A program made the position numbers and the translations under genes. From the NCBI GenBank assembly GCA_964352055.1, contig CAYGQZ010000004.1:1-47629 (forward strand): DNA of 47,629 bases, written 5' to 3'. Below, piece by piece: positions 8,248 through 38,756 of the stretch (position 1 is its first letter; each line of letters opens with the position of its first letter). The notes under the pieces were generated by a model. It was given only the letters and a program-made list of their open reading frames with translations. It searched no databases and was not told the DNA's origin. Origin of the DNA: an uncultured Rhodobacterales bacterium (lineage in GTDB: Bacteria; Pseudomonadota; Alphaproteobacteria; Rhodobacterales; Rhodobacteraceae).

Positions 8248-8342
8248 GGATGTAATCTCCCTTCGAGACAAGCAGTGAAACAACTCCGCCTCAAGTGGCG
8301 GACTCTGGTCGTGAGAAGGCCAGCGAGATGACGCAGACACAA

Positions 8343-8387
8343 GAAAATTCTCTTTTTCATAAATTCCTCAAGAAATAATGATTTCAC
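8343..8387. promoter_or_regulatory. Candidate RpiR operator boxes upstream of the second dctP
   Basis: AGAAA-taatga-TTTCAC at 8371-8387 and GAAAATTCTCTTTTTCAT at 8343-8360 resemble the boxes at 1051-1097. Confidence 0.35.
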
Positions 8388-8660
8388 AAAAAGGTAAACC
8401 ATATATTACACATAAAATTCAGTTAGTTATGGTTCTTTGGGCTGTTTGATTTGGCGATAATCGCCACATCAAGACACGAAATCTCTTACGCAAAGCCCAT
8501 TTTTTCAGCGCAATTGGTGAACGTAGCTGTTTAAACATGCGCTGGCGCGACACCGGTTAAGGTTCTGCCCACTTGCTGCCTATGCCGCTTGTCCAGAGGC
8601 ACACTGTACTGAACTGAAGGTACGACGTGGCTAAGACCAATTGGAGTGAAATGACCGAGC

Positions 8661-9392: not shown

Positions 9393-9461
9393 ACGAAACA
9401 CGATTGCAGCCGCTCATGATTATCGGTTGATCTGACCGCAGAGGGATATGATACCCACACC

Positions 9462-11283: not shown

Positions 11284-12246
11284 CTAGCCTGGAACGTAGG
11301 CCCTGTTCGCTTCGGGATCCTGCAAATCGGCCTTGAGGGTCGTGAGGTCGTTCCAGACGGCGGGGTCAATGCTGGCCTCTGCCCAGTCCAGCGCCTGTTT
11401 CACCCGACTGGGGCGTGACACGCCGATGATCGTGGATGTCACGCGCGACTCGTTGGTTGAAAACTGCAAGGCGACGGTTCCAGGTGCGACGCCGTGGCGC
11501 GCGCAGGTGTCTTCGACCTGGCGGACAGGGGCGAGGGCCGCGTCGTCAGCGACCTGATAGGTGATCCGTTTGACCGAGGCGCTGCCTTTGGCAAGGACGC
11601 CGCCCGCGAACGGGGCCGCGTTGCACACGGCGATACCATGGGCGCGGGCATACTCATAGACCGGCCCTGCGGAACGGTTGAGCAGGGTGAACCGGTTGTG
11701 GTTGAGCAGGAGGTCAAACGGCCATTCACGGATCAGATCCATCAACAGATCGGTACGGCCCATGGCAATGCCGATGGCGTCGACCATGCCTTCTTCCTTC
11801 AGTGCGACCAACGCATCAAGCGCGCCGCCGGGGCGGCGGATTTCCTCAAGGTCGCGGGCATGTTCGGGATCGTGCAGGTGCAGGATCTGGAACCGGTCGA
11901 GCCCGAGCGCAGTCAGGCTTTCCTCGGCCGAGCGGCGGACCTGATCGGCGTCAAAGCGGCCCGTGTCCATATCCCGATCCAGTTTGGTGGACACGACAAA
12001 GCCATCGGGCAGGCCGCCACGTTCGCGGATCACAGCGCCGATGCGGTTCTCGCTGCGCCCAAAGCCGTAGTTGCGCGAGGTATCAATCAGATTGACAGGG
12101 CTGTCGAAGATCGCGTTGATCGTCGCGTGGGCTGTCGCGTCATCGACATCGTGGCCGTAGGTGTCGGGCATGCCGCCCAGGGCTGCCGTGCCAAATCCGA
12201 TCGAGGTGATCTCGAGGCCGGTTGTGCCGATGGGGTGTCTTTTCAT
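11284..12246 (-). CDS. Aldo/keto reductase, D-threo-aldose 1-dehydrogenase (AKR15)-like
   Basis: IGFGTAALG, IDTSRNYGFGRSE, VSTK, HLHDP catalytic tetrad pattern. Confidence 0.88.
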   Translation of the reverse strand: MKRHPIGTTGLEITSIGFGTAALGGMPDTYGHDVDDATAHATINAIFDSPVNLIDTSRNYGFGRSENRIGAVIRERGGLPDGFVVSTKLDRDMDTGRFDADQVRRSAEESLTALGLDRFQILHLHDPEHARDLEEIRRPGGALDALVALKEEGMVDAIGIAMGRTDLLMDLIREWPFDLLLNHNRFTLLNRSAGPVYEYARAHGIAVCNAAPFAGGVLAKGSASVKRITYQVADDAALAPVRQVEDTCARHGVAPGTVALQFSTNESRVTSTIIGVSRPSRVKQALDWAEASIDPAVWNDLTTLKADLQDPEANRAYVPG

Positions 12247-12312
12247 TCTTGTGATCCTCCTTTGGAGATGGACGTGACCGACGGAGTTTGGTCGATCACG
12301 CCCTGTGTCTGA

Positions 12313-13359
12313 TCAGGTGCGCGTCTTGACGCCGCTGGAGCGTCGGCTGGCCACAGTTGTAAGTACGGCGGCAATGATGATGACCGCACCGGTCGATGCC
12401 TGAACATAAAAAGACGGGACCTGTGCGAGGGTCAACAGGTTGTTGATGACGCCGATCAGAAGCACACCACTGACGACGCCGATGATCGTGCCTTTGCCGC
12501 CTCCCAGGCTGACACCACCGATCACGGCTGCTGCGAAGGCGGAAAAGATAATGCCCTGCCCTTGGGTCGTCACGGCAGAGTCGAGCCGCCCGGTCATCAG
12601 AACCCCGGCAAGGCCGGACAGCAGGGCGGCAAAGATGAAGGCCGACCAGATCATGCGATCCACGTTGATCCCGGCGGCGCGCGCTGCTTCCTCGTTTCCG
12701 CCGACGGCGTATAGCGCGCGGCCATACCGGTGGAACTGGAAGACCAGTCCGACGATCGTGGCGACAGAGAGAAAGACGATGACCGAAACCGGCAGGCCGA
12801 GAATCTTGGCCGAACCAAGATAGGTCAGGGCATCGCCCGGCGAATAGATCGAGCGGCCGTTCGAGATGATCAACACACCGCCACGCAGAAGGACCAGCAG
12901 GCCAAGCGTCGAGATAAAGGGATTGAGCCCTACCTTGACCACCATGAAACCGTTGAACCAGCCGATGAGGGTGGCAACGCCAAGCGCCACGATCAACCCC
13001 ATCCAACCCGGCAACTCAACGCCAAAGCCACCGGCGGCAGCTGGCACAAGCATCACCGCCGCCAGCATCGGGGCAAAGCCCACGATCCCTTCGAGCGACA
13101 GATCGAGCCGCCCGATCATCACGACAAAGGTCAGCCCGATTGTGGTGAGGCCCAGCACACTGACCTGTTCAAGGATGTTGATCAGGTTGCGGGTGGTCAG
13201 AAAGGCCGGAGCGACGATGGCACCCACGATGACCAGAAGCAAAAGCACCGGATACATGGTAAAGCCGTTGGCAACAAAGGCGCTGCCAAAGGCCGACAAC
13301 CGGGACTGGCCGATATGCTGCGTCGTCGTGTTCGAATTGGTATCGGCTTGAACGCTCAT
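12313..13359 (-). CDS. Sugar/polyol ABC transporter permease (CUT2, RbsC-like)
   Basis: LDLS, PFISTLG, GRALYAVGGNEEAARAAGI, AAAVIGGVSLGGGKG. Confidence 0.95.
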   Translation of the reverse strand: MSVQADTNSNTTTQHIGQSRLSAFGSAFVANGFTMYPVLLLLVIVGAIVAPAFLTTRNLINILEQVSVLGLTTIGLTFVVMIGRLDLSLEGIVGFAPMLAAVMLVPAAAGGFGVELPGWMGLIVALGVATLIGWFNGFMVVKVGLNPFISTLGLLVLLRGGVLIISNGRSIYSPGDALTYLGSAKILGLPVSVIVFLSVATIVGLVFQFHRYGRALYAVGGNEEAARAAGINVDRMIWSAFIFAALLSGLAGVLMTGRLDSAVTTQGQGIIFSAFAAAVIGGVSLGGGKGTIIGVVSGVLLIGVINNLLTLAQVPSFYVQASTGAVIIIAAVLTTVASRRSSGVKTRT

Positions 13360-14840
13360 GCCACGCCCTCCATATGCAAAATCAGGTCTTTCATGCTGTA
13401 GTCACCTACAAGTTCACTCACGATTTCTCCGTCAAAAACGATGGCGACGCGGTTGGCGAGTTGTTCGATTTCATCTTCTTCGTCTGACACGACAACGATG
13501 CCCAGACCTTCGCTCGCCAGATCGCGCAGGAGCGCATAAAGCTGTTCCTTTGCGCCGACATCCACGCCGCGCGTGGGGCTGAGCGCCACGATCACGTTGG
13601 GGTCGCGGCACAGCGATCGGGCAAAGACGACCTTTTGCTGGTTGCCCCCACTCAGTTGGCTGACTGGCTGTTCCAGCGAAGATGCGATGATATTGGTCAG
13701 CCGTGACAGGTTTCCGACGTGCTTGGCCTCTTTCTTGCGATCAATAAAGCCAAGCGGTCCGGTGAGCATATCGAGGCCGCCGATGGAAACGTTTTCGCGC
13801 ACGCCGAGGATTCCGACATAGCCGCTTGCGTGGCGGTCGGTGGGCACAAGCCCGATGACCGGTCTGGTGCCGCGCGGGCTTGAAACTTCGCCGCGCAAGG
13901 GTTTCTTGTGCCCGGCAAGGATCATCGCAAGATCCTCTTTGCCGCTGCCCACGGGGCCAGCCAGTGCGAGGATTTCGCCTGGGCGGACCTCGAGATTGAT
14001 TTCACCGGCGGCCTTGGCGTTGACCCGGATGCCCTTGGCGGTCAGCAGGGCAGGGGTGTCGGTCTCGGTATGGTCTTCTCGGACGCTGCGTTTGGTTTCT
14101 TCGCCCATCATCAAGTTGGCGATGGTTTCGACATCAAGATCGGACACCGCGGCGCGTGCCCGGACGACCTTGCCGTCGCGCAGGATCGTCACGGTATCGG
14201 CAACCTCGAAAATTTCATCGAGGTGGTGCGAGATATAGATGAAGGACACGCCCGCCACTTTCAGTTTTTTGACGTTCTCGAAGAGCACACGCTTTTCCGC
14301 GTTGCTGAGGGCGGCGGTTGGCTCGTCAAGGATCATCACCGGCACACCACGGTTGAGCGCCTTGATGATCTCGAGCAATTGCCGGGTGCCTGCGTCGAGT
14401 TCGCCCGCCAAGGCGCCCGCGCGAATATCCATATTCCATTCGGTCAGCAAAGCTGTGGCGCGCGATTGCATCACGCCATGGCTGATCCGTCCCCAGGATT
14501 TGCGAACGATGGGGTTTTCGATAAAGAGGTTTTCCGCGACGCTCAGTTGATCGAAGAGACGCGGTGTCTGTTGCACATGGGCGATTTCGTCGCGGATCAG
14601 GGCGGCGTAGTTCTGCCCGGTCGCGGTAAAGCTGGTGGATCCGATGCGGATATCGCCGGAATCGGCGGGGGTGAACCCGCTGAGGGCCGAAACAAGCGTG
14701 CTCTTGCCCGCCCCGTTGCGCCCCAGAAGTGCGTGAACCTCGCCGCGGTTTACGGTGAGGTCCGCGCCCTGCAGTGCGCGCGTGGAGCCGAAGGTCTTGG
14801 TAATGTTGCGCATCTCTACGATAGGATGTGACTGGTCCAT
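13356..14840 (-). CDS. Sugar ABC transporter ATP-binding protein (tandem ATPase, RbsA-like)
   Basis: GRNGAGKST, LDEPT, LSGGNQQKV, PTRGVDVG. Confidence 0.95.
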   Translation of the reverse strand: MDQSHPIVEMRNITKTFGSTRALQGADLTVNRGEVHALLGRNGAGKSTLVSALSGFTPADSGDIRIGSTSFTATGQNYAALIRDEIAHVQQTPRLFDQLSVAENLFIENPIVRKSWGRISHGVMQSRATALLTEWNMDIRAGALAGELDAGTRQLLEIIKALNRGVPVMILDEPTAALSNAEKRVLFENVKKLKVAGVSFIYISHHLDEIFEVADTVTILRDGKVVRARAAVSDLDVETIANLMMGEETKRSVREDHTETDTPALLTAKGIRVNAKAAGEINLEVRPGEILALAGPVGSGKEDLAMILAGHKKPLRGEVSSPRGTRPVIGLVPTDRHASGYVGILGVRENVSIGGLDMLTGPLGFIDRKKEAKHVGNLSRLTNIIASSLEQPVSQLSGGNQQKVVFARSLCRDPNVIVALSPTRGVDVGAKEQLYALLRDLASEGLGIVVVSDEEDEIEQLANRVAIVFDGEIVSELVGDYSMKDLILHMEGVA

Positions 14841-14876
14841 GATCTCCGGCTCCTTGCTTGGCTTGGGTCAGGTAGC

Positions 14877-15908
14877 TTACTTGCCGATCTTGTTGGCCCA
14901 AAGATCATCGGATTCCACGTTGGCCGCTGTGACCAGTGTTGCATTCAACTGGTACTGAGGTCCAACTTCGGTCTCGATAACCCGGCCATCATCACGCGGG
15001 CCGATGTCGATGGTGCCACCGTTCGACACCAGTTCGATCAGTTCGGCCGTCTTGGTAGCATAGGCGCTGAGCGGCTGAGAGACGGTCGCGTCAAGTGCGC
15101 CTTCGCGGATCAGTTGCAGACCCTGGGGCGTGCCATCGATGGCGACGCGGATGACAGAGCCTTCTTCGCCCACGGCAGCATCCAGGTCGGCGGACCGCAG
15201 TTGCGCATTGACGGCTGTGGCCATCAGTTCGGACGCCATGAAGATCCCGTCAAGTGTCGGGTTCTGGGTCAGCACGTTCTGGGCGGCGTCGGCGGCCATG
15301 TCAGCCGTCCATTCGGTCGGGCGCTGGATCAGTTCGACGTTGGGTGCCAGAGCACGCAGCGTATCGGCAAAACCGTTCGAGCGGTCCAGACCGTTGGGTG
15401 TCGTCAGCCCGCCCTGCAATTCCAGCACGATGCAGCTGTTGTCAGTCGAGCAGGGATCGTTTGCCAGACGGCGGGCCATTTCTTCGGCACCTTGAACACC
15501 GGCGTTGTAGTTGTCGGCACGAACGGTCGCGGTGACCATTCCGCCGGCAGGGCTGTCGTCGATCGAAAAGACCAGTGCGCCCGCCTCGTTGGCGCGAATG
15601 ACTGCGGGCACGATGCCGGCGGAATCAAGCGGGGCGAAGACAATGACATTGGCACCATTGGCCAGCAGGTTTTGCAGGGCGTCGACCTGAGCGGCGATAT
15701 CGCCGTTGGGATCGGGGGCGCCCACAAGGGTAAAGCCCTTGTCGTCGAACGCCGCCAGCGAAAGATCCAACATCAGTGTCTGGAAGTCGTCTTTCAGGAA
15801 TTTGGGGGTCATGCCGACTTTGACATCCGCATTGTCAGCATGTGCAACCATGGCGCTTGATGCCAAGAGGGTCGCGCCGAGGGCGATGGCCTTGTGTGAG
15901 AGTTTCAT
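14877..15908 (-). CDS. Sugar/polyol ABC transporter substrate-binding protein
   Basis: Signal peptide from ATG 15908 (GGAGG RBS); VRADNYNAG, DRSNGF, AIDG..LDATVSQP motifs. Confidence 0.93.
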   Translation of the reverse strand: MKLSHKAIALGATLLASSAMVAHADNADVKVGMTPKFLKDDFQTLMLDLSLAAFDDKGFTLVGAPDPNGDIAAQVDALQNLLANGANVIVFAPLDSAGIVPAVIRANEAGALVFSIDDSPAGGMVTATVRADNYNAGVQGAEEMARRLANDPCSTDNSCIVLELQGGLTTPNGLDRSNGFADTLRALAPNVELIQRPTEWTADMAADAAQNVLTQNPTLDGIFMASELMATAVNAQLRSADLDAAVGEEGSVIRVAIDGTPQGLQLIREGALDATVSQPLSAYATKTAELIELVSNGGTIDIGPRDDGRVIETEVGPQYQLNATLVTAANVESDDLWANKIGK

Positions 15909-16049
15909 GTCTTTCCTCCGTTTGAGCTTGGCTTTGGCAGGGTGTCTGCTGTGCCGGTTCGGCGCTGTCGCGGCGCCTATGAAATGCGGTGCCAACTGTT
16001 ACTCCTCACTGGCGTCGCGGTCGTTCGGGTGGCCCGGTCGTGATATCGA

Positions 16050-17060
16050 TCAGGCGCTGATTTCAGAAACCTTGACCATTCGGCCCTCGCGCATCGACAG
16101 GTACGCGGCCTCTGCAAGGATGAGCGCCCGGCGCCCGTCTTCAAAGCTGGCCAGCGGGGACGCGCCCTGTTCGACGCAATCCACGAACCCGTCGATTTCG
16201 GCCATGAAGGCCTCGAGATAGCGTTCGAGAAAGAAGAACTGATAAGGCTCGCTCGCTTCGACGGTCTTTGCCGAATAGCGGCGCATTTCGTGCGGCTTGC
16301 GATTGTCGGAAAGGATCATGCCGGTGCTGCCCATCAACTCGACCCGCTGGTCATAGCCGTAAACGGCGGTGCGTGAGTTGTTGATATGGCACTGCTTGCC
16401 TGATGCGGTGCGCAGCACGATCATGGCGCTGTCGATTTCGTTCAGCTCCGCGCCCAAGGCGGAGTCAATAAGCGCGCCGCCAATGGCGAACACCTCGGTC
16501 GGCTCTTCGCCCAGCATGAAACGCGCGAGATCAAAATCATGGATCGTCATGTCGCGGAACAGGCCGCCCGCGGCTTCGAGATAGGCGCGCGGCGGAATTG
16601 CGGGATCGCGCGAGGTGATGATGACCTGATGCAGATCGCCGATATCGCCCGCCACCATCGCGGCCCGTGCGGCGGCGTGGCCGGGATCGTAGCGGCGGTT
16701 GAAGCCCAACTGGATCGGCACTGTACAGCCCGCGATCATGGCGGCGCAGGCTTCGACCCGCGCGAGGTTCAAATCAATTGGCTTTTCGCACAGAACCGCC
16801 TTGCCGGCAGCCACGGCCATTTCGATGTAATCGGCGTGCGTTGGGGTGGCTGTTGCGATCAGTACGGCGTCGATCTGGTCGGAGGCGAACACGTCTTCGG
16901 CGCTGGCGGCAGCGGTGACACCTTGCTCTTGCGCGACGCGATCTGCGGAGGGCTGGTGTACGTCGTAGACTGTTGCGAGGCAGGCTCTGGGATGGCGAGC
17001 GACATTGGCCGCATGCATTTGTCCGATTCTGCCACACCCCAAAACGGCAATTCTCAACAT
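16050..17060 (-). CDS. iolG: myo-inositol 2-dehydrogenase
   Basis: LGCGRIG, CEKPIDL, GFNRRYDP, ITSRDP, GGLFRDMTIHDFD, YGYDQRVE, FFLERY; start ATG 17060. Confidence 0.93.
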   Translation of the reverse strand: MLRIAVLGCGRIGQMHAANVARHPRACLATVYDVHQPSADRVAQEQGVTAAASAEDVFASDQIDAVLIATATPTHADYIEMAVAAGKAVLCEKPIDLNLARVEACAAMIAGCTVPIQLGFNRRYDPGHAAARAAMVAGDIGDLHQVIITSRDPAIPPRAYLEAAGGLFRDMTIHDFDLARFMLGEEPTEVFAIGGALIDSALGAELNEIDSAMIVLRTASGKQCHINNSRTAVYGYDQRVELMGSTGMILSDNRKPHEMRRYSAKTVEASEPYQFFFLERYLEAFMAEIDGFVDCVEQGASPLASFEDGRRALILAEAAYLSMREGRMVKVSEISA

Positions 17061-17089
17061 CAGCTTACCCTCCCAAGGATAGTGGTTTG

Positions 17090-17105
17090 TGCAACATATG
17101 TTGCG
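17090..17105. promoter_or_regulatory. TGCAAY-N4-RTTGCA operator box, iolG-proximal
   Basis: TGCAAC-atat-GTTGCG; perfect 14-bp palindrome at 17091-17104. Confidence 0.65.
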
Positions 17106-17142
17106 TTTGCGCAATTTTGTCAACAAACAATTTGCCGATTAA

Positions 17143-17172
17143 CACTTTCTGCAATTTTCATTGCAGAAAGTG
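17143..17172. promoter_or_regulatory. Extended inverted repeat containing TGCAAT-N4-ATTGCA (operator; may also act as a terminator)
   Basis: CACTTTCTGCAAT-tttc-ATTGCAGAAAGTG, 13-bp perfect arms. Confidence 0.7.
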
Positions 17173-17212
17173 CGGGGCGGGCCCCGTCCCAACAATTGAA
17201 TTGAGTGGCGTT

Positions 17213-18361
17213 TCAGGTGGCTGTGCAGTTGTGACGCGTGAAAATCTGACTTTCTGTCAGATGGTTAGCGGGCTGCTGGCCGCTCAGTGCAATTCGAATA
17301 CTGTCGATGGCTTGAGCAATTTCGCGGTCGAAATCATGTCCTATGGTGAGGTCCATTATCCCGTCTTCGAGCAGTTTGCGGGCGTTGGGGTTCAGCTCGT
17401 GCCCCATGAAAACTGTGCGCCCGACCAGATTTTCCGCCTCGAGCGCGCGCCCGATGCCCAGATTCGCGCCCGAGACGTTGTAGATCGCCGAAGGTGCCCC
17501 GGTTTTGCTGACGTATTGGCGGATAGCGTCATAGGTCACGTCGGGGCTTTCGTCGGAGCTGACCTTTTCATCGATGGTGAGCCATGGGAATTCAGACCGC
17601 AGAACCTGTCGGAATCCCAGTTCGCGATCCAGTTGGCACCGGAAGGGAACGCTGCTGACAAGAAGCACATTCTGGGGCGTTTCGCGCGGCAGGAACCGAC
17701 CGCAGAGCCAGCCGGCTGTGGCGCCCGAGGCAAATTGATCCGATCCGACATATGCGGTCCGTCCCGAAGAGGGCAGGTCGCTGGTCAGGCAGATCACCGG
17801 TGTGCCGTTGCGGGTTTCATCCCGGACCGCGTTGTTTATCGAGGGATGTTCGCGCGCGACCAGAATAATTCCGTCATACTCCGCCGCAAAGACATGAATA
17901 CGTTGCGCAAAATCAGATGGGTCCACCATCGTTGGTAAGACACTTTCGGTCTTGATCCGTACCGTCGGCCTCATCTTCTGATAGGTATCTGCAGCGGATT
18001 CGGCAGCCTTGTTGAACGATTGACCGGACTCGATGAGTAGCGCGAGGTTCAGCATGGTCCCCGCAGCGTCTTTCGGAGTGGGCGCGTTGCGTTCGAGCAG
18101 CGACGCCATGTCCTGCTGGAGGATCGTCTGGAATTCTTTGTATCCCGACAAACCCAAGGATTGCGCTAGCCGCACCACGCTGGAGGCGTGAACGCCGCAT
18201 TGCGCGGCAACCTCGGTGGCAGGAAGCAGGGCGGACGATGTGGGGTTGTCGATGAAGAAGCGCGCAAGTTTGCGCCCGCCTTTTCCAAGCTCGTCTTGCA
18301 TGCCATCAAGGCGTTTCAGCAACGATTCTGCGGTGGCTGATGTCATATGCGGCTTGTTCAT
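17213..18361 (-). CDS. Chimeric transcriptional regulator: RpiR-type HTH plus LacI/periplasmic-binding-type sugar sensor domain
   Basis: N-terminal EVAAQCGVHASSVVRLAQSLGLSGYKEF. C-terminal DGIILV, TSDLPSS, YVGSDQFASGATAG, RELGF, GHEL motifs; no SIS domain. Start ATG 18361. Confidence 0.85.
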   Translation of the reverse strand: MNKPHMTSATAESLLKRLDGMQDELGKGGRKLARFFIDNPTSSALLPATEVAAQCGVHASSVVRLAQSLGLSGYKEFQTILQQDMASLLERNAPTPKDAAGTMLNLALLIESGQSFNKAAESAADTYQKMRPTVRIKTESVLPTMVDPSDFAQRIHVFAAEYDGIILVAREHPSINNAVRDETRNGTPVICLTSDLPSSGRTAYVGSDQFASGATAGWLCGRFLPRETPQNVLLVSSVPFRCQLDRELGFRQVLRSEFPWLTIDEKVSSDESPDVTYDAIRQYVSKTGAPSAIYNVSGANLGIGRALEAENLVGRTVFMGHELNPNARKLLEDGIMDLTIGHDFDREIAQAIDSIRIALSGQQPANHLTESQIFTRHNCTAT

Positions 18362-18404
18362 CGTGGTCTCTCCCTGAAAGGAGAATAGCCAAAACGTGCA
18401 TAAA

Positions 18405-18420
18405 TGCAATAAATATTGCA
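18405..18420. promoter_or_regulatory. TGCAAT-N4-ATTGCA operator box upstream of the chimeric regulator
   Basis: TGCAAT-aaat-ATTGCA. Confidence 0.7.
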
Positions 18421-18444
18421 TAATGCTGCGGCGGTCGCGCTTTG

Positions 18445-19317
18445 TCAGGTTCCGGTGACTGTCGGAATTCGGGGGCTGTCGCCCTCTTTCTGGACGCGGG
18501 CCGCGACCGCAAGCGCCAGAGCTTGCGCCAGACACATCGGCGCGGCGAGCGAGCGCGAGAAAGTGTAATCATGTTCAGGCACGGCGAACAGCACCGACGC
18601 GGATTTGGCCAGTGGGCTGAGCGTGCTGTCGGAAATCGCGACAATCGGCAAACCGGCAAGCGCGGTTTCCTCGACGATGTTGACCACTTCGGTTGCATAA
18701 AACCGGAACGAGACAGCAAACAGCACGTCATCGGGGCCCATGGTACGGGCGACATGCGTGGAAAGACCGCCGCCAGTGTCGAGCAGGATGCAGCGTTTTC
18801 CGAGCATGGTTAAAATATAGCGCATCAGTTCCACAACCGGGGCCGAGCGCAATTGGCCCACCAGATAGACAACCGGTGCCTTTTCGATCAGATCCGCGGC
18901 GCGGGCGAGGTCGTTCTGTTTGATTTCGCTGATCATGTCCTGCAGCGATGCGATGTCGCGCACGACAAGATCGCGCAAGAACGCGGCTTCCGAATGATCA
19001 TCACTGGCGCTGAGTTCCTTATCGAGTGCCTTGACGCGGGCGTCAAAACCGGGTGCTGCGGTTGCAAGGCGTTTTTGAAAGAGGCTTTGCAGTTCCTTGA
19101 AGCCGGAATAGCCAAGAGACTGTGCGAAACGCACAAAGCTGGACGCGTGAATGCCGCAGGAGTCGGCAATCGCGTTAACCGAAAGCACGCCGACTTCGTT
19201 GGGGTTCTGCGTGAGGTAAAGCGCAATCTTCTGGTAGGTCTTGCTCATCTTTCCGTGCCGTTCGTGAACCAGACGGATCAGGTCTTCGTACTCTTTGGGC
19301 GGTGAGCTGTCGTTCAT
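18445..19317 (-). CDS. RpiR family regulator (IolR-like, HTH + SIS)
   Basis: CGIHASSFVRFAQSLGYSGFKELQ HTH; SIS with VSFRFYA and AISDSTLSPL; inside the iol cluster. Confidence 0.9.
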   Translation of the reverse strand: MNDSSPPKEYEDLIRLVHERHGKMSKTYQKIALYLTQNPNEVGVLSVNAIADSCGIHASSFVRFAQSLGYSGFKELQSLFQKRLATAAPGFDARVKALDKELSASDDHSEAAFLRDLVVRDIASLQDMISEIKQNDLARAADLIEKAPVVYLVGQLRSAPVVELMRYILTMLGKRCILLDTGGGLSTHVARTMGPDDVLFAVSFRFYATEVVNIVEETALAGLPIVAISDSTLSPLAKSASVLFAVPEHDYTFSRSLAAPMCLAQALALAVAARVQKEGDSPRIPTVTGT

Positions 19318-19359
19318 GGGTTTGCCTTTTTCCTATGCCAGAAGCGAGTTGCGGCAATC

Positions 19360-19375
19360 GGCAATATTCATTGCA
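19360..19375. promoter_or_regulatory. Operator box upstream of the RpiR regulator
   Basis: GGCAAT-attc-ATTGCA, one mismatch to consensus. Confidence 0.65.
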
Positions 19376-19387
19376 GAGGCGGATTCA

Positions 19388-20380
19388 TCAACCGGTTTGT
19401 CGCACGCATGCTGCAGTGATCGATGCTCGGTTTACGATCAGGTCTGGGTCGATCGTGCCGGCAAAGAAATCGAGCACGTTTCGAACCGACATCACGGCCA
19501 TCCGTTCGGCGGCTTCGAATGTGAGGCCCGCGATATGCGGGCTGAGGATGGCCTGATCAAAGTCGAGCAGGGGGGAGCCTGTGGTGGGCGGCTCTGTTTC
19601 GAACACATCGAAACCGATCGCGCCGACTTTGCCGGAGCGCAGACCGTCAGCCAGCGCCGCTTCATCCACGACACCTCCGCGTGCGGTGTTCACGATGATG
19701 GCCCCCGGTTTCAGCGCGTCGATTTCCGCCGCGCCAATCAGGGGCTGGTCGGCGCGCGGCACATGAACGGAAACGAAATCGGCCCATTTCAGACCATCCA
19801 TCAGATCGGTCACGCATCCCACGTTGCCATCGGGCCAGGCCGTCCGGGCGAGATAGGGGTCATAGGCGCGCACCTGCATCTCGAAACCGGCAGCCATCCG
19901 CGCAAGGTTGCGACCGATGCGCCCATACCCGAGTATCAGCAGACGTTTGCCCGAGATCTCTTGTTGTTCCAGGGTGTTGCGCCACCCCCATTTGCTGGCG
20001 TCATGAACCGCACCGTTGGCGCGCACCACGCGTTTGGCCGCAGCAAGCATCTGCATCATCGCATGTTCGGCCACCGAGACGGAATTGACGTCGCCCACGA
20101 TTGTAAGCGCAATGTCCCGCGCATTGAGCGCGGGCAGATCGACCGCATCGTAACCGACGCCATGGCGCGAGACGACTTTGAGCTGGGTGCCGCGCGCCAC
20201 GGTTTGTGCCGACATCGGCTGGGTGCGGATCACCAGCGCGTCGGCCTTGTCGATCAGCGGCGCATAGGACGGTTCGGAGATTTCTTCGATGTAGTCATGG
20301 GTGAAGCCGAGTGTCCTAGCATGTTCCAGAACGTTCAGGCCAGCCGGGTGCAGTTTTCCTGCGACGAGAATATGGGGCAT
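19388..20380 (-). CDS. D-2-hydroxyacid dehydrogenase (PGDH-like, no ACT domain)
   Basis: RHGVGYD, GYGRIG, NTARG, DVFETEP, SPHIAG. Confidence 0.92.
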   Translation of the reverse strand: MPHILVAGKLHPAGLNVLEHARTLGFTHDYIEEISEPSYAPLIDKADALVIRTQPMSAQTVARGTQLKVVSRHGVGYDAVDLPALNARDIALTIVGDVNSVSVAEHAMMQMLAAAKRVVRANGAVHDASKWGWRNTLEQQEISGKRLLILGYGRIGRNLARMAAGFEMQVRAYDPYLARTAWPDGNVGCVTDLMDGLKWADFVSVHVPRADQPLIGAAEIDALKPGAIIVNTARGGVVDEAALADGLRSGKVGAIGFDVFETEPPTTGSPLLDFDQAILSPHIAGLTFEAAERMAVMSVRNVLDFFAGTIDPDLIVNRASITAACVRQTG

Positions 20381-21186
20381 CAGTAGCCCTCCTTTCTGGT
20401 GACAGCTGCGTCGTCTTTGGTCAGGGAGCGAAACGTGGCAACGGATGCCGCCGCCGCCGCCGCCAGCAGGCGCGAATCGCCCGATACGGTTGTCATGTCA
20501 AAACCCCAGCCGATCGCGCGCGCGGCGTATTGAGGCGTGCCGCAATGCAGAGCAGCGCGGATATTGTTGGCTTTGCAGGTGGCGACAATCTGCTGAATCA
20601 GTGCGATCATTTCGGGTTCTTCACGGTCAAAAGCAGGGGGCAACCGACCGCTCTGAGTGCCCAGCGTCAGATCGGCAGGACCCACGTAAATCCCGTCGAG
20701 TCCCGGTGTGGCTGCAATGGCGTCAAGGTTCGCCATGCCTTCGGCGGTTTCGATCATCGCGAAGGCGAGGACCTGATCGTTTGCTTCAACCCCGTATCCG
20801 CCGTGGGCGATATTGGCGCGCGTCGGGCCAAAGCTGCGCTGACCGTGCGGCGGGTAGCGCATATAGCTGACAAGGGTCGCTGCCTCTGCCGCCGTATTGA
20901 TCATCGGGCAGATGATTCCCATAGCACCGGCATCAAGCGCTTTCATGATGATACCGGGTTCAAGCCACGGTACCCGCGCCATCGGGACCACGCCCGAAGC
21001 CTGCATCGCCTGGAACATGGGCAGGACGGAACTGTAATCCAGCGCGCCGTGCTGGATGTCGATCGTGATGCTGTCATAGCCCTGGGCCGCCATGATTTCA
21101 GCGGTGAAGGGGTTGCCGATGGACAGCCAGCCATTGATCGACGGGCGGCCATCAAACCAGATGTCCTTGAGTGAATTGGCAATCAT
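20380..21186 (-). CDS. HpcH/HpaI class II pyruvate-type aldolase
   Basis: DIQHG, ARVP, LDAGAMGIICPM, RYPPHGQRS, MIET, GPADL; start ATG 21186. Confidence 0.92.
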   Translation of the reverse strand: MIANSLKDIWFDGRPSINGWLSIGNPFTAEIMAAQGYDSITIDIQHGALDYSSVLPMFQAMQASGVVPMARVPWLEPGIIMKALDAGAMGIICPMINTAAEAATLVSYMRYPPHGQRSFGPTRANIAHGGYGVEANDQVLAFAMIETAEGMANLDAIAATPGLDGIYVGPADLTLGTQSGRLPPAFDREEPEMIALIQQIVATCKANNIRAALHCGTPQYAARAIGWGFDMTTVSGDSRLLAAAAAASVATFRSLTKDDAAVTRKEGY

Positions 21187-21196
21187 GGCGAGCCCC

Positions 21197-22633
21197 TTAG
21201 AAGACAATTTGTGCGAGTTTGGTGTCGAGGTAATCAGCCAGACCTTCGGGCCCGCCTTCGCGCCCCATGCCTGAAAAACTGGTTCCGCCGAACGGTGCCT
21301 CGGACGCGGCCAGTGCAAAGCTGTTGATCCCGACCATGCCCGCCTTGAGCGCCGCGACGATGCGCCGCGCGCGATCCGGTGCACGGGTGAAGGCATAGGC
21401 CGACAGCCCCATGTCAGAGGCATTGGCGCGGGCCAGAACCTCGTCTTCTTCGCGGAAAGTTGTGATCGCTGCGACGGGACCAAAGTTTTCATCGGCAAAG
21501 ACACGCATGTCGTCTGTGACGTTGGTCAGCACAGTCGGCTGATAGAAGTGCCCGGAGTTAAACTCAGTTGCGCGGGCACCACCCAGTTCCAGCGTGGCGC
21601 CCGCCCGGACGGCCTCTTGCACGACGCCGTCGATCTCGGTCAGACGTCGCGCGTTGATCAGCGGGCCCATGGAGGTGCCCGGGTCCATGCCATCGCCAAG
21701 CTTTATTTTTCTGGCCCGCGCGACGAATCCGTCGACAAAGGCGTCGTGCAGGCTTTCGTGGACGAAAAAGCGGTCGGCGGTCACACAGACTTGCCCCGCG
21801 TTCGCGTATTTCGTGGCGACCGACATATCCAGGGCCGTTTCAAGATCGGAGTCGTCGCAGATTATCAGAGGCGCGTTGCCGCCCAGTTCCATCGACACCT
21901 TTTTGACCGTCGCGGCGGCGTCGCGGATCATTTGCTGGCCGATGCGCGTGGACCCGGTCAGAGACACTTTGCGCACGCGGGGGTCTGCCATGATGACGTC
22001 ATAGGTCGTGGCGGTGGTGCCGGTCACAAGCGACACCGCGCCTTCGGGAAGGCCGCCGGCGCGGATGCAGTCGATCAGGATCATCGCGACGCCCGGAGTT
22101 TGTGACGAGGGGCGCAAAACGACGGAACAGCCTGCGGCAAGCGCGGGTGCGATCTTGCGCGCGGGCAGGGCGGCGGGAAAATTCCAAGCGGTGAAAGCCC
22201 CGACAATGCCCACAGGTTCGTGAGATACTTCGAAGCGGCCACCGGGCACGCGGGATCCGATGACGCGACCATAGATGCGCCGCGCCTCTTCGGCGTACCA
22301 GCGGAACTGATCTGTGGCCAACACCCATTCGCGTTCGGCCTGTGCCATGGGTTTGCCGGTTTCGAAGGTATTCATCCTTGCGGCTTCGGAGGCGCGCAGC
22401 ACCATTTGATCAGCGATCTTGTGCAACGCGTCCGCGCGTTGAAAACCGTCCATTTTGCGCAGCGCGCGCAGTCCGTGTTCGGCCGAATCAATCGCCGCGG
22501 TGGTGTCTTTGACCGAGGCCGAGGCAACGGCACCGAGTTGTTTTTCGGTCACCGGTGACATCACGGGCGTGGTGGCGCCATGTTCTGCCTTTTCCCAGCG
22601 TCCATTGATAAATAGTCCAAAATTTTCATACAT
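21197..22633 (-). CDS. NAD(P)-dependent aldehyde dehydrogenase (succinate-semialdehyde dehydrogenase-like)
   Basis: AWNFP, SLTGST, MELGGNAP, NAGQVC, PFGG..SGMGREG; start ATG 22633 (GGAGG RBS). Confidence 0.93.
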   Translation of the reverse strand: MYENFGLFINGRWEKAEHGATTPVMSPVTEKQLGAVASASVKDTTAAIDSAEHGLRALRKMDGFQRADALHKIADQMVLRASEAARMNTFETGKPMAQAEREWVLATDQFRWYAEEARRIYGRVIGSRVPGGRFEVSHEPVGIVGAFTAWNFPAALPARKIAPALAAGCSVVLRPSSQTPGVAMILIDCIRAGGLPEGAVSLVTGTTATTYDVIMADPRVRKVSLTGSTRIGQQMIRDAAATVKKVSMELGGNAPLIICDDSDLETALDMSVATKYANAGQVCVTADRFFVHESLHDAFVDGFVARARKIKLGDGMDPGTSMGPLINARRLTEIDGVVQEAVRAGATLELGGARATEFNSGHFYQPTVLTNVTDDMRVFADENFGPVAAITTFREEDEVLARANASDMGLSAYAFTRAPDRARRIVAALKAGMVGINSFALAASEAPFGGTSFSGMGREGGPEGLADYLDTKLAQIVF

Positions 22634-22698
22634 TTCGCGTTCCTCCCCACCGGTGTGTGCGTGCGCCAAAGCGTGCGGCACCGGCGAATTTGCTATTT

Positions 22699-22714
22699 CG
22701 CAATACAGATTGCA
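22699..22714. promoter_or_regulatory. Operator box in the ALDH/iolD divergent promoter
   Basis: CGCAAT-acag-ATTGCA, one mismatch to consensus. Confidence 0.65.
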
Positions 22715-22778
22715 GAACTGTTGCAATGTCAATAAACATTCCATAATGTTTTCGAAACGATACTCGGGAGGAGACGAC

Positions 22779-24638
22779 ATGACCCTAAAGACGGTTCGCC
22801 TGACGATGGCGCAGGCAGTGGTGCGCTATCTGTGCAGCCAGTTCACCGAAATCAATGGCGAACGAGTGCCGCTTTTTGCCGGGGTATTCGGCATCTTTGG
22901 GCATGGCAATGTGACCTGCCTGTCCGAGGCGCTTGAACAGGTACAGGACCAGCTGCCTACATGGCGTGGTCAGAACGAACAGTCGATGGCGCTGGCCGCG
23001 ATCGGATATGGCAAGGCCAAGCTGCGCCGCCAGATCATGATCGCCACCTCATCGGTCGGGCCGGGCGCGACCAATATGATTACCGCCGCAGGTGTGGCTC
23101 ATGCCAACCGTCTGCCTGTGCTTTTGCTGGCGGGCGACACGTATACCAACAGGTTGCCCGACCCGGTCCTGCAGCAGGTCGAGCATTTCGGCGACCCCAC
23201 CGTGACGGTCAATGATGGCTTCAAGGCCGTCAGCCGCTATTGGGACCGGATCACCCATCCCGCGCAGATCCTCGCGTCTTTGCCGCAGGCGATTGCCACG
23301 ATGCTGGACCCGGCGGACTGTGGGCCGGCTTTTATCGGCTTGCCGCAGGACACGCAGGAACTGGCCTATGACTATCCGATCGCCTTCTTTGAAGAGCGAG
23401 ACTGGACCATCCCGCGCCCGCGCCCTTCGCGCGATCAGATTGCCAACGCGGCGGCGCTTTTGAAAACGGCAAAGAACCCGCTGATCATCTCGGGCGGCGG
23501 TGTACGCTATTCAGGCGCGAGCGAGGCGCTGGCGAGTTTCGCACTTGAGCGTGGCATTCCTATGGCCGAGACCATCGCAGGCAAGGGGGCGGTGGTTCAC
23601 GATCACCCGGCCTATGTCGGACCCTTGGGGATTGAAGGCACGGATGCAGCCAAATCAATTGCCGAAACTGCGGATGTAGTGATTGCGGTTGGCACGCGGT
23701 TGCAGGACTTCACCACCGGGTCGTGGACAACCTTTGCGCCCGACGCACAGTTCATCAACATCAATGCCTCGCGCTATGACGCGCGCAAGCACCGCGCGTT
23801 GCCGGTGGTGGGCGATGCACTTGAGTCGCTGACCGAACTGGACGCTGCCTTGGGTGACTGGGCCTGCGACCCCGCGCGGCTGACCAAGGCGCAAGAGCTT
23901 TATGCCGCTTGGAACAGGATGCTTGACGAGGGCCAGGCGGCCACCAATGCAGCCGTGCCGAGCTATGCTCAGGTCATTGCCGTTGTGAACAAAATGGCCA
24001 AACCCGCTGATACGCTGATCACGGCGGCGGGCGGCTTGCCGGGAGAGACCGTCAAGAACTGGCGGGTCAAAAGCCCGCATACGTTTGATTGCGAGTTTGG
24101 CTTTTCCTGCATGGGCTACGAGATCGCCGGTGCCTGGGGCCATGCCATGGCAAAGGATGGTGACGGCACGCCCATCGTTTTGGTAGGCGACGGATCCTAC
24201 ATGATGATGAATTCGGATATCTATTCCTCGGTCCTGTCTGGGCACAAGATGATCGTCGTCGTATGCGACAATGGTGGATTCGGCGTCATCAACCGGCTGC
24301 AGACCGGGATGGGGGTGCCGGGGTTCAACAACCTGCTGCGGGATTCGCGGGTGCAGAACAAAGATAACCCGCTGCGCGTCGATTTCGCCAAACACGCCGA
24401 AGCGATGGGAGCACTTGCGCGGCATTGCGAAAGCCTCGCCGAACTTGAAGCAGCGCTGGACTGGGCGCAAGGCACCGACCGCACAACGGTGTTGACGATC
24501 GCATTGGATGCGCATGTCTGGACGCCGGGTGGCGCGGATTGGTATGTCGGTGTGCCGGAAATTTCGGTACGCGCCAGTGTGCAAGAGGCGCGCGCAGGTC
24601 AGGCGGCGTTCCGCAAGAAACAGCGGCAGGGAGTCTAA
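22779..24638 (+). CDS. iolD: 3D-(3,5/4)-trihydroxycyclohexane-1,2-dione acylhydrolase (TPP-dependent)
   Basis: RLTMAQA, IFGHGNV, GQNEQSMA, PDPVLQQ, EFGFSCMGYE, GDGSYMM; GGAGG RBS before ATG 22779. Confidence 0.96.
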   Translation: MTLKTVRLTMAQAVVRYLCSQFTEINGERVPLFAGVFGIFGHGNVTCLSEALEQVQDQLPTWRGQNEQSMALAAIGYGKAKLRRQIMIATSSVGPGATNMITAAGVAHANRLPVLLLAGDTYTNRLPDPVLQQVEHFGDPTVTVNDGFKAVSRYWDRITHPAQILASLPQAIATMLDPADCGPAFIGLPQDTQELAYDYPIAFFEERDWTIPRPRPSRDQIANAAALLKTAKNPLIISGGGVRYSGASEALASFALERGIPMAETIAGKGAVVHDHPAYVGPLGIEGTDAAKSIAETADVVIAVGTRLQDFTTGSWTTFAPDAQFININASRYDARKHRALPVVGDALESLTELDAALGDWACDPARLTKAQELYAAWNRMLDEGQAATNAAVPSYAQVIAVVNKMAKPADTLITAAGGLPGETVKNWRVKSPHTFDCEFGFSCMGYEIAGAWGHAMAKDGDGTPIVLVGDGSYMMMNSDIYSSVLSGHKMIVVVCDNGGFGVINRLQTGMGVPGFNNLLRDSRVQNKDNPLRVDFAKHAEAMGALARHCESLAELEAALDWAQGTDRTTVLTIALDAHVWTPGGADWYVGVPEISVRASVQEARAGQAAFRKKQRQGV

Positions 24639-24642
24639 CCAA

Positions 24643-25539
24643 ATGCCAAACGCAAAACTGGGTATCGCGCCGATCGCATGGTGGAACGACGACGACGCGT
24701 CGCTGTCGGATGACGTGACACTGGAAGAGGCGCTGCGTCAGGCCTCGGTCGCCGGGTTCACCGGCATGGAAACGGGCCGGCGCTTTCCCATGGACATGGC
24801 GGAGCTTGGGCCGATCCTTGCGAAGTTCGGCATTTCGGTGTGCGGCGGCTGGTTTTCGGGCCTCCTGCTGGATGGCGATCTGGAGGCCGAAAAGGACAGG
24901 ATTGCCGAACAGATGGCGTTCTTCATCGCGGCGGGTGCGCCGGGGATCGCCTATGGCGAAACCGCGCGATCTGTTCAGGGGGTCCGTAGCGCGCCGTTGG
25001 CAACAAAGCCGAAGCTGAGCGAAGCCGAGATCGCCCGCTACGGGCGCAAGATGTCGGATTTTGCCGATTGGTGCGCGGGGCAGGGGATGCCGATCGCCTA
25101 TCACCACCACATGGCCGCTGTGATCGAGACCGAGCAAGAACTTGATCTGTTCATGAAACATTCGTCTGCGCCGCTTCTTTATGATGCGGGCCACATGGCA
25201 TTTGCGGGCGGCGACGTGATGCGGGTGATCGACAACCACGCGGCACGCATCAGCCACGTGCATACCAAAGACGTGCGCATGGATGTGATCAACGCACTGG
25301 ACCGGAAGGCGGAAAGCTTTCTGGATGCGGTGATCAAAGGGGCATTTACAGTACCTGGCGATGGCTCATTGAACTTTGAGGCCATCGTCAAAGCGCTTGC
25401 CGCAAAAGGGTACGAGGGCTGGTTCGTGGTCGAAGCTGAACAGGACCCGGTGAAAAACCCACCATTGGAGATGGCCATGGTTGGCCACAAGGAACTGCTG
25501 CGCGTGATGGCGGCTGCAAAATATGAGGTGACGACATGA
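24643..25539 (+). CDS. iolE: myo-inosose-2 dehydratase
   Basis: LGIAPIAWWNDD, YHHHM, DAGH, HVHTKDVR, FTVPGDG, VVEAEQDP. Confidence 0.96.
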   Translation: MPNAKLGIAPIAWWNDDDASLSDDVTLEEALRQASVAGFTGMETGRRFPMDMAELGPILAKFGISVCGGWFSGLLLDGDLEAEKDRIAEQMAFFIAAGAPGIAYGETARSVQGVRSAPLATKPKLSEAEIARYGRKMSDFADWCAGQGMPIAYHHHMAAVIETEQELDLFMKHSSAPLLYDAGHMAFAGGDVMRVIDNHAARISHVHTKDVRMDVINALDRKAESFLDAVIKGAFTVPGDGSLNFEAIVKALAAKGYEGWFVVEAEQDPVKNPPLEMAMVGHKELLRVMAAAKYEVTT

Positions 25540-26351
25540 ACCGGATTGACGGAAAAATCGCCGTGGTAACGGGCGGGACGCAAGGCTTGGGCGCGGCGAT
25601 TGCGCGGACATTTGCTGCCGCAGGCGCAGGCGGGATTGCCATTGTGGGACGGGATGCGGAAAAAGGGCAAAAGGTCGCCGCCGCAATCGAGGCCGAAATG
25701 GGCGTGCCAACGATCATGATTGCCGCAGATCTTGAGAACATCGCAGACATCCGCCGGATCATGGCCGAAGCCGATGCGCGCTTTGGTCGTGTCGATATCC
25801 TTGTCAACGCAGCGGGCCTGACCGACCGGGGCAACCTGTTGAACACCACGCCGGAATTGTTCGACCGGATGTTCGCGGTCAACACCCGCGCGCCGTTTTT
25901 TCTAATGCAGGATGCGGTCAACATCATGGAACGCGAAGGTGTCGAAGGGCGTATCGTCAACATCGGCTCAACGTCCCAGCACGCAGGCCAGCCCTTTATC
26001 GCGCCCTATTGTGCATCCAAAGCAGCCCTTGCGACGCTGACTCGGAATTCCGGCTATGCGCTGATGCGCAATCGCATCCACGTCAACCAACTAGATATCG
26101 GTTGGATGGCCTCGGACCACGAGCGCGAGTTGCAACTTGAAGAGTCCGGTGACCCCGACTGGGAAGCCAAGGCAACCGCTGGTCTGCCGTTCGGGCGCTT
26201 GCTCGACCCGCAGGAGGTGGCGCGCGCGGTCTTGTGGATGGCATCGGACGACAGCGGCATGATGACCGGAACCGTGATCCAGTTCGACCAGTCCGTATGG
26301 GGTGGATACGACGGCCAGGCACCGGGACCGGCGGAAAAGTTGAAGGCATAA
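25536..26351 (+). CDS. Short-chain dehydrogenase/reductase, coupled to iolE
   Basis: TGGTQGLG, VNAAG, YCASK; ATGA overlap with iolE. Confidence 0.92.
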   Translation: MNRIDGKIAVVTGGTQGLGAAIARTFAAAGAGGIAIVGRDAEKGQKVAAAIEAEMGVPTIMIAADLENIADIRRIMAEADARFGRVDILVNAAGLTDRGNLLNTTPELFDRMFAVNTRAPFFLMQDAVNIMEREGVEGRIVNIGSTSQHAGQPFIAPYCASKAALATLTRNSGYALMRNRIHVNQLDIGWMASDHERELQLEESGDPDWEAKATAGLPFGRLLDPQEVARAVLWMASDDSGMMTGTVIQFDQSVWGGYDGQAPGPAEKLKA

Positions 26352-26880: not shown

Positions 26881-27329
26881 TGTTGGTAATTGGAGATTGC
26901 GTTAACCCGGAACGATATCTGTTCATTTGCACCGCAGCGCACTGGCCAAAATTTTTTGATTGGTGCGTGTTTTCTCATCCTGACACGCTCTTCTTTTTGT
27001 CCATTCGCCCAAATACCAAGGGTTTTGACGCAGATTGGTCTTTAGTCGCTTACCCCAACGGCGAGGCTTTCTTGCGCGAAGCGTTGCACAAACCAAGTTC
27101 GAAAAGGGTAGACCGATTAAGGTTAATGGAGCTGCTCAACCCCGCTGCATGTTCAACTCCGCCCTGATCCGAATGGGATGCAAAAGTCCGCTTTGTCGAG
27201 CGATTTGTGACAAACCCCTCCTGAAATCTGCAAGACGGCGTTGGGGCGCTGCCTAAACTGCATGGGAAGTCAGCGCATGGGCAACATGTCCATTCGATAC
27301 GATCAACCATGTTTCAGGGAGCCAGAGCC

Positions 27330-29513: not shown

Positions 29514-29545
29514 TCTCCCGACAGGCAGATTTCGTTCAGTCACCT

Positions 29546-29581
29546 AAAAGCGCGGGGCACTCCCTCCCCGCGCTTTTTTTG
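29546..29581. terminator. Bidirectional intrinsic terminator between the dehydrogenase and etfA
   Basis: AAAAGCGCGGGG/CCCCGCGCTTTT stem with T-run on + and A4 on the other side. Confidence 0.85.
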
Positions 29582-29599
29582 TGCCTAGATCGGGGGGGC

Positions 29600-34115: not shown

Positions 34116-34130
34116 TTGATCAATGATCTA
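34116..34130. promoter_or_regulatory. TTGATC-N3-GATCAA box (candidate GntR operator) upstream of the GMC/ABC operon
   Basis: TTGATC-aat-GATCTA; same motif at 39473 and 39624. Confidence 0.6.
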
Positions 34131-38744: not shown

Positions 38745-38756
38745 ATGAAAGAACCG

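Follow-up and report, generated by a model that had tools for sequence, protein, structure and literature searches.

Positions 11284 to 26351 of contig CAYGQZ010000004.1, a 47,629-nucleotide stretch from an uncultured Rhodobacterales bacterium (assembly GCA_964352055.1) that is referred to in full as the window, carry genes for IolG-, IolE- and IolD-type enzymes of inositol catabolism together with an aldehyde dehydrogenase (ALDH), a class II aldolase of the HpcH family (hereafter HpcH) and a SerA-like D-2-hydroxyacid dehydrogenase (hereafter HADH). We read this module, the enzyme trio plus the iolG/E/D set, as a second, separately regulated inositol-type system with an oxidative and aldol ending, probably dedicated to an inositol other than myo-inositol, and give the reading as a whole an even chance. 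The module is conserved and co-regulated and, as a variant of inositol catabolism, apparently undescribed. The original prediction, made from the DNA letters alone, had proposed the same chemistry for myo-inositol itself, as a replacement for the IolB and IolC steps that spends no ATP.

In the proposed pathway, IolG, IolE and IolD would convert a cyclitol by way of an inosose and a trihydroxycyclohexanedione to a 5-deoxy-hexuronate. ALDH would oxidize C1 of this uronate to give 2,3,4-trihydroxyadipate, a deoxy-aldarate, HADH would oxidize C2 to give 2-oxo-3,4-dihydroxyadipate, and aldol cleavage by HpcH would release hydroxypyruvate and malonate semialdehyde, to be handled by an IolA-type methylmalonate-semialdehyde dehydrogenase (MMSDH) and a glycerate kinase encoded elsewhere. 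MMSDH was found in all eight genomes examined and a glycerate-kinase domain (PF13660) in six of them. All reactions after IolD, the fate of the products and the substrate are inferred; from the sequences, we consider the oxidative chemistry likely and, given that chemistry, a main substrate other than myo-inositol fairly probable.

The gene set that had been described is present in the window. Every named module gene is an intact open reading frame (ORF) with a plausible ribosome-binding site, and iolG, iolD and iolE exceed the NCBIfam equivalog cut-offs (Table 1). Gaps of 10 and −1 bases separate the ALDH, HpcH and HADH genes, and 145 bases part ALDH from the divergent iolD; the operator box said to be common to both operons is there, as is the aldo/keto reductase (AKR) at the end of the run of iolG and transporter genes. 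A short-chain dehydrogenase/reductase (SDR) encoded after iolE had been left out of the scheme. A scan of 40 window ORFs turned up no gene of the iolB, iolC, iolJ or iolA type, so that the absence of these genes stands for the window, but not for the genome, which encodes iolC, an iolB-type protein, an aldolase and an IolA-type enzyme elsewhere. The window's second ALDH (40930-42354) reaches 258 bits, with the MMSDH cut-off at 448.5. No aldarate or aldonate dehydratase was found in the window or among the recurring neighbors of module loci. An IlvD-family gene adjoins the module copy of one genome, G148; a dehydratase in place of HADH was not adopted, as this is a single case in which a HADH remnant persists.

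The association of the trio with iolD and iolE, which the original prediction had proposed to check in other genomes, does extend across genomes. With the SDR as query, 185,579 species genomes yielded 271 relatives, the best 80 of which were analyzed, and all loci fetched together provided 81 with a module-type iolD, these loci being of limited length and a few genomes being represented twice. The neighbors of iolD in this set include HpcH (72), HADH (70), iolE (68), an RpiR regulator (61) and ALDH (55), along with the SDR in 74, most loci having been retrieved with it as query. An extra GFO dehydrogenase, which the window lacks, is encoded near 65 of the 81. The AKR, put forward earlier as a possible C1 oxidant, turned out to be a minor partner (10/81 of these length-limited loci) and was rejected as a core step. 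An AKR, XylB-like SDR or amidohydrolase lactonase lies near 6 of 13 modules without ALDH and 4 of 53 with it, a contrast whose p value of 0.003 is overstated since kin are not independent and loci are incomplete. Carriers, which range over the Alphaproteobacteria and extend to some enterobacterial plasmids, include Roseobacter-group genera, Paracoccus, Rhizobium and Thalassospira as well as plasmids of Acidiphilium, Pantoea and Klebsiella; many are marine genera, and the type of transporter differs from carrier to carrier. Even samples were drawn from the family (150 genomes), class (300) and phylum (400), and the module occurs in 14 of the 150 family genomes. A fast IQ-TREE analysis covering 58 of 95 IolD sequences placed the module IolDs in a single group (SH-aLRT 94), with two canonical clades (100 each) separate from it; identity to these is 45-56%. 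The catalytic motifs are common to all three, and nine alignment columns distinguish the module type from both canonical clades; no IolD structure on which to place these columns was found. As far as gene neighborhoods tell, a distinct iolD/iolE set has the trio as its conserved partner, all under a single operator.

This operator is a palindrome, TGCAAT-N4-ATTGCA, present at five sites in four module promoter regions. The motif was learned from 68 non-redundant iolD upstream regions, with a strength of 13.7 per sequence versus 4.8 in shuffled sequences, and only the site at 22699 was part of the training set. Each of the window's five top-scoring sites is located in a promoter region of the module, and three of them are the top three of the assembly. 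A genome-wide scan gave 19 matches at scores of at least 10.5, 5 of them in the module; no match outside the module could be tied to a recognizable gene. The box is similar to, yet distinct from, that of the canonical alphaproteobacterial IolR regulon, GGAA-N6-TTCC, which according to the part of PMC2597717 available was tested. The canonical box occurs neither in the window nor in any of 85 module iolD upstream regions; the control search did detect it, upstream of 4 of 9 canonical iolR genes and of 4 of 17 fused iolC genes. Conversely, a profile scan found the module box before none of 26 iolC and none of 25 iolB genes, many of which are internal operon genes, and a looser pattern placed it before 1 of the 26 iolC genes. 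A scan for sigma-70 promoters gave 4 sites versus 5.1 expected. The predicted sites mark the module genes as co-regulated by a module-specific operator.

The enzymes themselves were compared with characterized relatives. HpcH is nearest to the hydroxyketoacid aldolase SwHKA (PDB 6R62, E 5e-58, versus 4e-34 to 1e-30 for HpaI, GarL and YfaU). The metal ligands Glu146 and Asp172 and the catalytic residues Arg71 and His46 are invariant in 75/75 module homologs, all of which keep the equivalents of SwHKA residues Gln43, His44, Arg69, Ser116, Glu145 and Asp171. Two positions differ: Arg120 of SwHKA is replaced by Thr or Ala, and Phe210 by a His (His214) that is likewise invariant in the 75 homologs. 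Phe210, an aromatic residue in place of a conserved leucine, underlies the use of hydroxypyruvate by SwHKA, which prefers to form the (3S,4S) product; the portion of PMC10099721 available, the source of both statements, gives no natural pathway for the enzyme. His214 is, by this comparison, permissive for hydroxypyruvate use and not diagnostic of it. HADH has the Asp174 typical of NAD-dependent enzymes and an Arg234/Glu263/His282 triad, residues that are invariant in 69/69 module homologs; it is possibly also a hydroxypyruvate reductase. ALDH falls under all the family cut-offs in the matches listed, scoring 470 bits against a succinate-semialdehyde dehydrogenase (SSADH) cut-off of 646 (TIGR01780) and 204 bits against the MMSDH cut-off of 448.5 (TIGR01722). 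It has the sequence KYAN where GabD has KFRN, whose arginine we take to bind substrate, and K-F/Y-A/G-N is found in most of 61 aligned rows. The nearest solved structures to the AKR are L-galactose (aldose-1) dehydrogenases (PDB 7EZI, E 7e-30). A single close relative of the SDR has a solved structure (4NIM, E 2e-103), and the SDR shows an invariant Gly-Arg motif, presumably that typical of NADP-using SDRs.

Independent support for the oxidative chemistry comes from a parallel cassette. In genome G555, one operon (L164:2-12379) encodes in order an IolD, an NAD-dependent epimerase-family protein, HADH, HpcH, an ABC transporter, a GFO protein, an IolE-like protein, an SMP-30 lactonase and an IolG. 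The best solved relative of the epimerase-family protein is, as a distant match, uronate dehydrogenase (3RFT, E 3e-15). A metagenome scan gave 28 such loci, of which the 21 at or above 52% identity were counted together with G555, the 7 at or below 44% being dropped; many of the resulting 22 are on short contigs, five of these being under 1.6 kb. These loci include HADH (20), the IolE-like gene (14), iolD (12), the lactonase (11) and HpcH (10), and neither an ALDH nor an IlvD-type dehydratase in any of the 22. The residue at the SwHKA Phe210 site of the cassette HpcH is Phe in 9/9 sequences. Judged by gene content, a putative hemiacetal dehydrogenase and a lactonase in the place of ALDH constitute the best evidence that the IolD product would be oxidized at C1, and HADH would be the simplest source of the 2-keto acid for HpcH because no dehydratase is at hand. 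G555 retains iolB and iolC, and the cassette is rare, with one weak match in 301 class-level genomes. A histidinol-dehydrogenase-like gene was also seen in 8 of the 22 loci (G555 L164; L166-L186).

A search of the remaining genome for iolB and iolC, as proposed with the original prediction, located both in assembly G000 (90% complete, 2.3% contaminated, 653 contigs). On contig C595, the end of a second iolD, an iolC (309 bits, cut-off 300) and the first part of an iolB-type gene were found; the remainder of the last is on contig C605 together with a class II aldolase. The iolB-type product scores 227 bits against the Pfam KduI/IolB family and 130 bits, under the cut-off of 205, against TIGR04378. 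The divergent half of this second iol operon is on contig C72 (17 kb), 71-89% identical to a Ruegeria copy, and an MMSDH above cut-off is encoded apart from it on C182 (644 bits; TIGR01722 cut-off 448.5). The presence of iolC and an iolB-type gene elsewhere in the genome is thus the first of the two observations that had been named as telling against the original prediction. Contamination as the origin of these genes was rejected on the basis of normal tetranucleotide composition (composition distances of C595 and C605 at the 0.1th and 47th percentiles of 1080 control pieces), the remainder of the operon on C72, and the same second operon in G151, the closest carrier found. The second operon (C72 L153:9685-17197; C595 L002; C605 L001) is of a divergent type with a short, unfused IolC. 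It is found again in many relatives, frequently next to the ordinary operon with fused IolC, and its substrate may be a different one.

The same coexistence is seen among other carriers. Whole-genome searches were run for 50 of the 80 SDR loci, chosen for having iolD, HpcH and HADH. Both iolC and an iolB-type gene turned up in all 50 genomes; the cut-off was exceeded by 48 of the iolC genes, the other two scoring 293 and 298 bits, and by 38 of the iolB-type ones. At least two full-length iolD genes are present in 43 of the genomes. With the even samples included, carriers that have iolD and HpcH number 68, and iolC is present in 64 of them. The mutual exclusion of the module and iolBC that had been raised as a possibility is therefore rejected. 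No positive dependence on iolC is shown either, since in the even family sample iolC is present in 11 of 14 carriers and 91 of 150 genomes overall (11/14 versus 80/136 others, p 0.25). Independence from iolBC holds in particular genomes, but not in general. G130 (100% complete, 5 contigs) and G357 (99% complete, 140 contigs) both hold an intact module and no iolB or iolC; the only full iolD of G130 is that of the module, and G357 also encodes an AKR, an XylB-like SDR and a lactonase. G148 (97% complete) lacks iolB and iolC and retains only a HADH remnant, and G055, also without iolB and iolC, is 66% complete. Because the near-complete G130 and G357 hold an intact module without iolB/iolC, the module can stand alone; it is an add-on in most genomes and stands alone in a small minority.

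That this genome and most carriers keep the textbook genes as well makes a substrate other than myo-inositol probable, as do the second full-length iolD in 43 of 50 genomes and an operator unlike the canonical box. Energy bookkeeping points the same way: taking hydroxypyruvate to phosphoglycerate by way of glycerate kinase costs one ATP more than the canonical route, which removes the advantage first claimed for the pathway. A saving of ATP cannot explain retention beside iolBC, and a different substrate would. By geometric enumeration, neo-, muco- and chiro-inositols can yield galacto- or manno-type uronates by IolE-like elimination, and scyllo-inositol and 2-keto-myo-inositol yield the gluco type only. 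The likeliest substrate would be such a neo-, muco- or chiro-type stereoisomer, or one released from a cyclitol bearing an O-methyl or amino group, a stereoisomer the uronate of which would not suit IolB, IolC and IolJ. Extra GFO dehydrogenases and MocD/MocE-type or PhyH oxygenases flank several module copies, and these oxygenases suggest that O-methyl or amino cyclitols are additional inputs. The module is not needed to account for pinitol alone, since the use of pinitol by Erwinia requires iolT1, iolG and iolE, with none of the demethylases tested being needed (PMC9788770, in the part available). In its most specific form, the proposal is of an undescribed route from neo-, muco- or chiro-inositol to hydroxypyruvate and malonate semialdehyde, present as two cassettes with different C1-oxidizing enzymes; this we hold tentatively, at rather less than an even chance.

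Several observations weigh against the preferred reading. The window IolE is the only one in the assembly above cut-off, the IolE-like product on C72 scoring 177 bits. In 5 of the 50 genomes searched (G167, G184, G190, G194 and G200), no iolD other than that of the module was matched and iolC is 4-20 kb distant; the product of this IolD may therefore be the ordinary substrate of IolB. Four loci combine SDR-iolE-iolD with HpcH and have no ALDH or HADH nearby, and the SDR has no place in the proposed scheme. His214 is also invariant in 21/21 non-module HpcH homologs, some of them beside dehydratases, and is on that account no proof by itself of hydroxypyruvate release. The HADH and HpcH of the parallel cassette form clades of their own, apart from the module enzymes, so the equivalence of the two cassettes is argued from gene content and not from orthology. 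Finally, the glycerate-kinase domain was not found in the stand-alone genome G357, the other genome of the eight in which it was not found being G296.

Some of these observations would fit a pathway in which the same oxidative steps act on 5-deoxy-D-glucuronate from myo-inositol as an alternative to IolB, IolC and IolJ, as first proposed. This version would account for the five genomes with a sole IolD beside iolC and for G130 and G357, in which no alternative route is open to the IolD product; IolG, IolE and IolD exceed cut-offs that are those of myo-inositol equivalogs, IolD has the catalytic motifs of the canonical clades, and, by established stereochemistry, a gluco-configured aldarate would offer the D-2-hydroxy center that a D-specific dehydrogenase requires. 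Nevertheless, we consider it unlikely, given the retention of iolC by 64/68 carriers and of a second iolD by 43/50, the module's own regulator and an operator that the profile scan did not find before iolB or iolC, and the additional ATP. The (3S,4S) preference of SwHKA reported in the available part of PMC10099721 is not the gluco configuration either, a weak argument as Arg120 is Thr or Ala here.

Two further explanations were considered. If the substrate were quercitol, a deoxy-inositol, IolE and IolD would form a 3,5-dideoxy-uronate, to be converted by ALDH and HADH to 4-hydroxy-2-oxoadipate and cleaved by HpcH to pyruvate and malonate semialdehyde. Each enzyme would then perform the standard chemistry of its family, and the coexistence with iolBC and the missing dehydratase would be accounted for; IolJ could not cleave a compound of the 4-hydroxy-2-oxoadipate type. 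Quercitol is abundant in oak and eucalypt (PMC8919412, in the part available). The hydroxypyruvate-type Phe of the parallel-cassette aldolase, which fits a retained C3 hydroxyl, the lack of any specific pointer in the loci and the marine genera among the carriers render this substrate improbable. Alternatively, the module IolG, IolE, IolD and SDR could feed ordinary IolB and IolC, with the trio clearing side products or acting in another order, for example with ALDH on the aldehyde released by HpcH. Of the 81 loci, 26 indeed have no ALDH and 9 no HpcH (in one of the nine, L148, an HpcH is just under the identity threshold), iolC/iolB come directly after the module in L064, L076 and L085, and G148 has only its HADH remnant. 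This arrangement is difficult to reconcile with the intact modules in the iolB/iolC-free G130 and G357, and with the parallel cassette, where the uronate-dehydrogenase-like gene directly follows iolD and is itself followed by HADH; we allow it a small chance.

The preferred reading, a separately regulated set with an oxidative ending for a non-myo inositol, resembles three known systems in part. With the canonical myo-inositol pathway, the module shares IolG, IolE and IolD above the curated cut-offs, an RpiR regulator, a sugar ABC transporter and the predicted malonate semialdehyde; it differs in lacking iolB, iolC, iolJ and iolA, in its separate IolD clade and operator, and in the addition of ALDH, HADH, HpcH and SDR. 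In the oxidative uronate-aldarate pathway, uronate dehydrogenase, a lactonase and an aldarate dehydratase are followed by a GarL-type aldolase or KDG dehydratase. The proposed conversion of a uronate to an aldarate at C1, the HpcH-family cleavage and the uronate-dehydrogenase-like protein and lactonase of the parallel cassette all recall this pathway. Unlike it, neither the module nor any of the 22 parallel-cassette loci has a dehydratase, so that the 2-keto acid would come by oxidation, the product would be hydroxypyruvate, and the uronate would derive from a cyclitol ring. In rhizopine (moc) catabolism, the product of the MocDEF oxygenase enters at the IolD and IolA of the ordinary pathway, according to the available part of PMC5789663. 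On two plasmids and in L091, the module has MocD-like desaturases and a MocE-type ferredoxin as neighbors, whereas the window has no moc oxygenase genes. No published description of this branch was found in a literature search that was thin on subscription journals and excluded supplements, of which that of PMC9430895 may list such clusters.

The lower inositol pathway has been treated as fixed, running through IolB, IolC, an aldolase and IolA, the genes for which serve genome surveys as the measure of inositol use (PMC9430895, in the part available). The IolCatGC defined there requires at least three of iolB, iolC, iolD and iolE inside a span of 10 kb; the window has iolD and iolE and no third core gene within that distance, its 47.6-kb contig containing neither iolB nor iolC, which are both on other contigs. 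If a second regulated ending exists, such surveys would miss carriers without iolBC and misread duplicate iolD and iolE genes. It would also name a route for cyclitols whose bacterial breakdown has been little studied, and give a physiological role and natural pathway to hydroxypyruvate aldolases, which are known mainly as biocatalysts. Cultured carriers exist, and the operator offers a ready reporter.

Table 1. Genes and operator sites of the module, with window coordinates.
Feature	Position	Strand	Remarks
Aldo/keto reductase (AKR)	11284..12246	-	PF00248; candidate accessory C1 oxidant
Sugar ABC permease	12313..13359	-	
Sugar ABC ATPase	13356..14840	-	
Periplasmic sugar-binding protein	14877..15908	-	
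IolG-type inositol 2-dehydrogenase	16050..17060	-	TIGR04380 408 bits, cut-off 355
Operator upstream of iolG	17090..17105	.	score 11.3
Operator upstream of iolG	17150..17165	.	score 14.4
Second regulator, RpiR-type helix-turn-helix fused to periplasmic-binding-protein domain	17213..18361	-	PF01418 + PF13407
Operator upstream of second regulator	18405..18420	.	score 16.3, highest in genome
RpiR/SIS regulator, IolR paralog	18445..19317	-	~30% identical to canonical iolR genes
Operator upstream of RpiR regulator	19360..19375	.	score 14.3
SerA-like D-2-hydroxyacid dehydrogenase (HADH)	19388..20380	-	predicted C2 oxidant
HpcH-family class II aldolase	20380..21186	-	nearest to hydroxyketoacid aldolase SwHKA
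SSADH-like aldehyde dehydrogenase (ALDH)	21197..22633	-	predicted C1 oxidant
Operator between divergent ALDH and iolD operons, CGCAATACAGATTGCA	22699..22714	.	score 11.4
IolD, ring-opening thiamine-diphosphate hydrolase, module-specific clade	22779..24638	+	TIGR04377 807 bits, cut-off 715
IolE inosose dehydratase	24643..25539	+	TIGR04379 373 bits, cut-off 290
SDR, subfamily PRK06198	25536..26351	+	possibly inosose reduction or epimerization

The pairing of helix-turn-helix and binding domains in the second regulator is unusual, with close homologs in few loci (L013-L015, L161 and L165). Downstream of the SDR, a TIM-barrel isomerase/epimerase and a GFO protein form a pair in 14 of the 80 SDR loci (L036, L039, L054, L060, L061, L063, L064, L076, L078, L079, L081, L083, L085 and L088), and a homolog of the TIM-barrel gene is present on contig C32 of this genome. 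A module-type SDR stands beside a PhyH dioxygenase without the module in 8/80 loci and in S. meliloti; the unit, a LacI regulator, the dioxygenase and the SDR with no iolD nearby (L117:7297-10804; L051, L065, L066, L068, L070, L071, L087 and L090), may act in cyclitol demethylation or deamination. The small, complete genome G228 (L139, L159; 1.4 Mb, one contig) encodes HpcH, iolG, iolE and the SDR, with a short iolC, iolB and an aldolase about 17 kb away and no iolD in the 39 kb read.

Elsewhere in the window, 1135-10301 contains two convergent TRAP transporter sets, an RpiR regulator and three genes of the Asp/Glu/hydantoin-racemase or arylmalonate-decarboxylase family. A betaine/carnitine-type catabolic region at 27309-46170 encodes a flavin oxidoreductase, a fused electron-transfer-flavoprotein/Fe-S protein, an OpuAC transporter, an ALDH, a thioesterase, a beta-keto acid cleavage enzyme, an SDR and an AraC regulator. 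The 179-residue ORF at 34162-34701 shows weak matches to two parts of a GMC oxidoreductase, the FAD-binding N-terminal one and the C-terminal one, and looks internally deleted.

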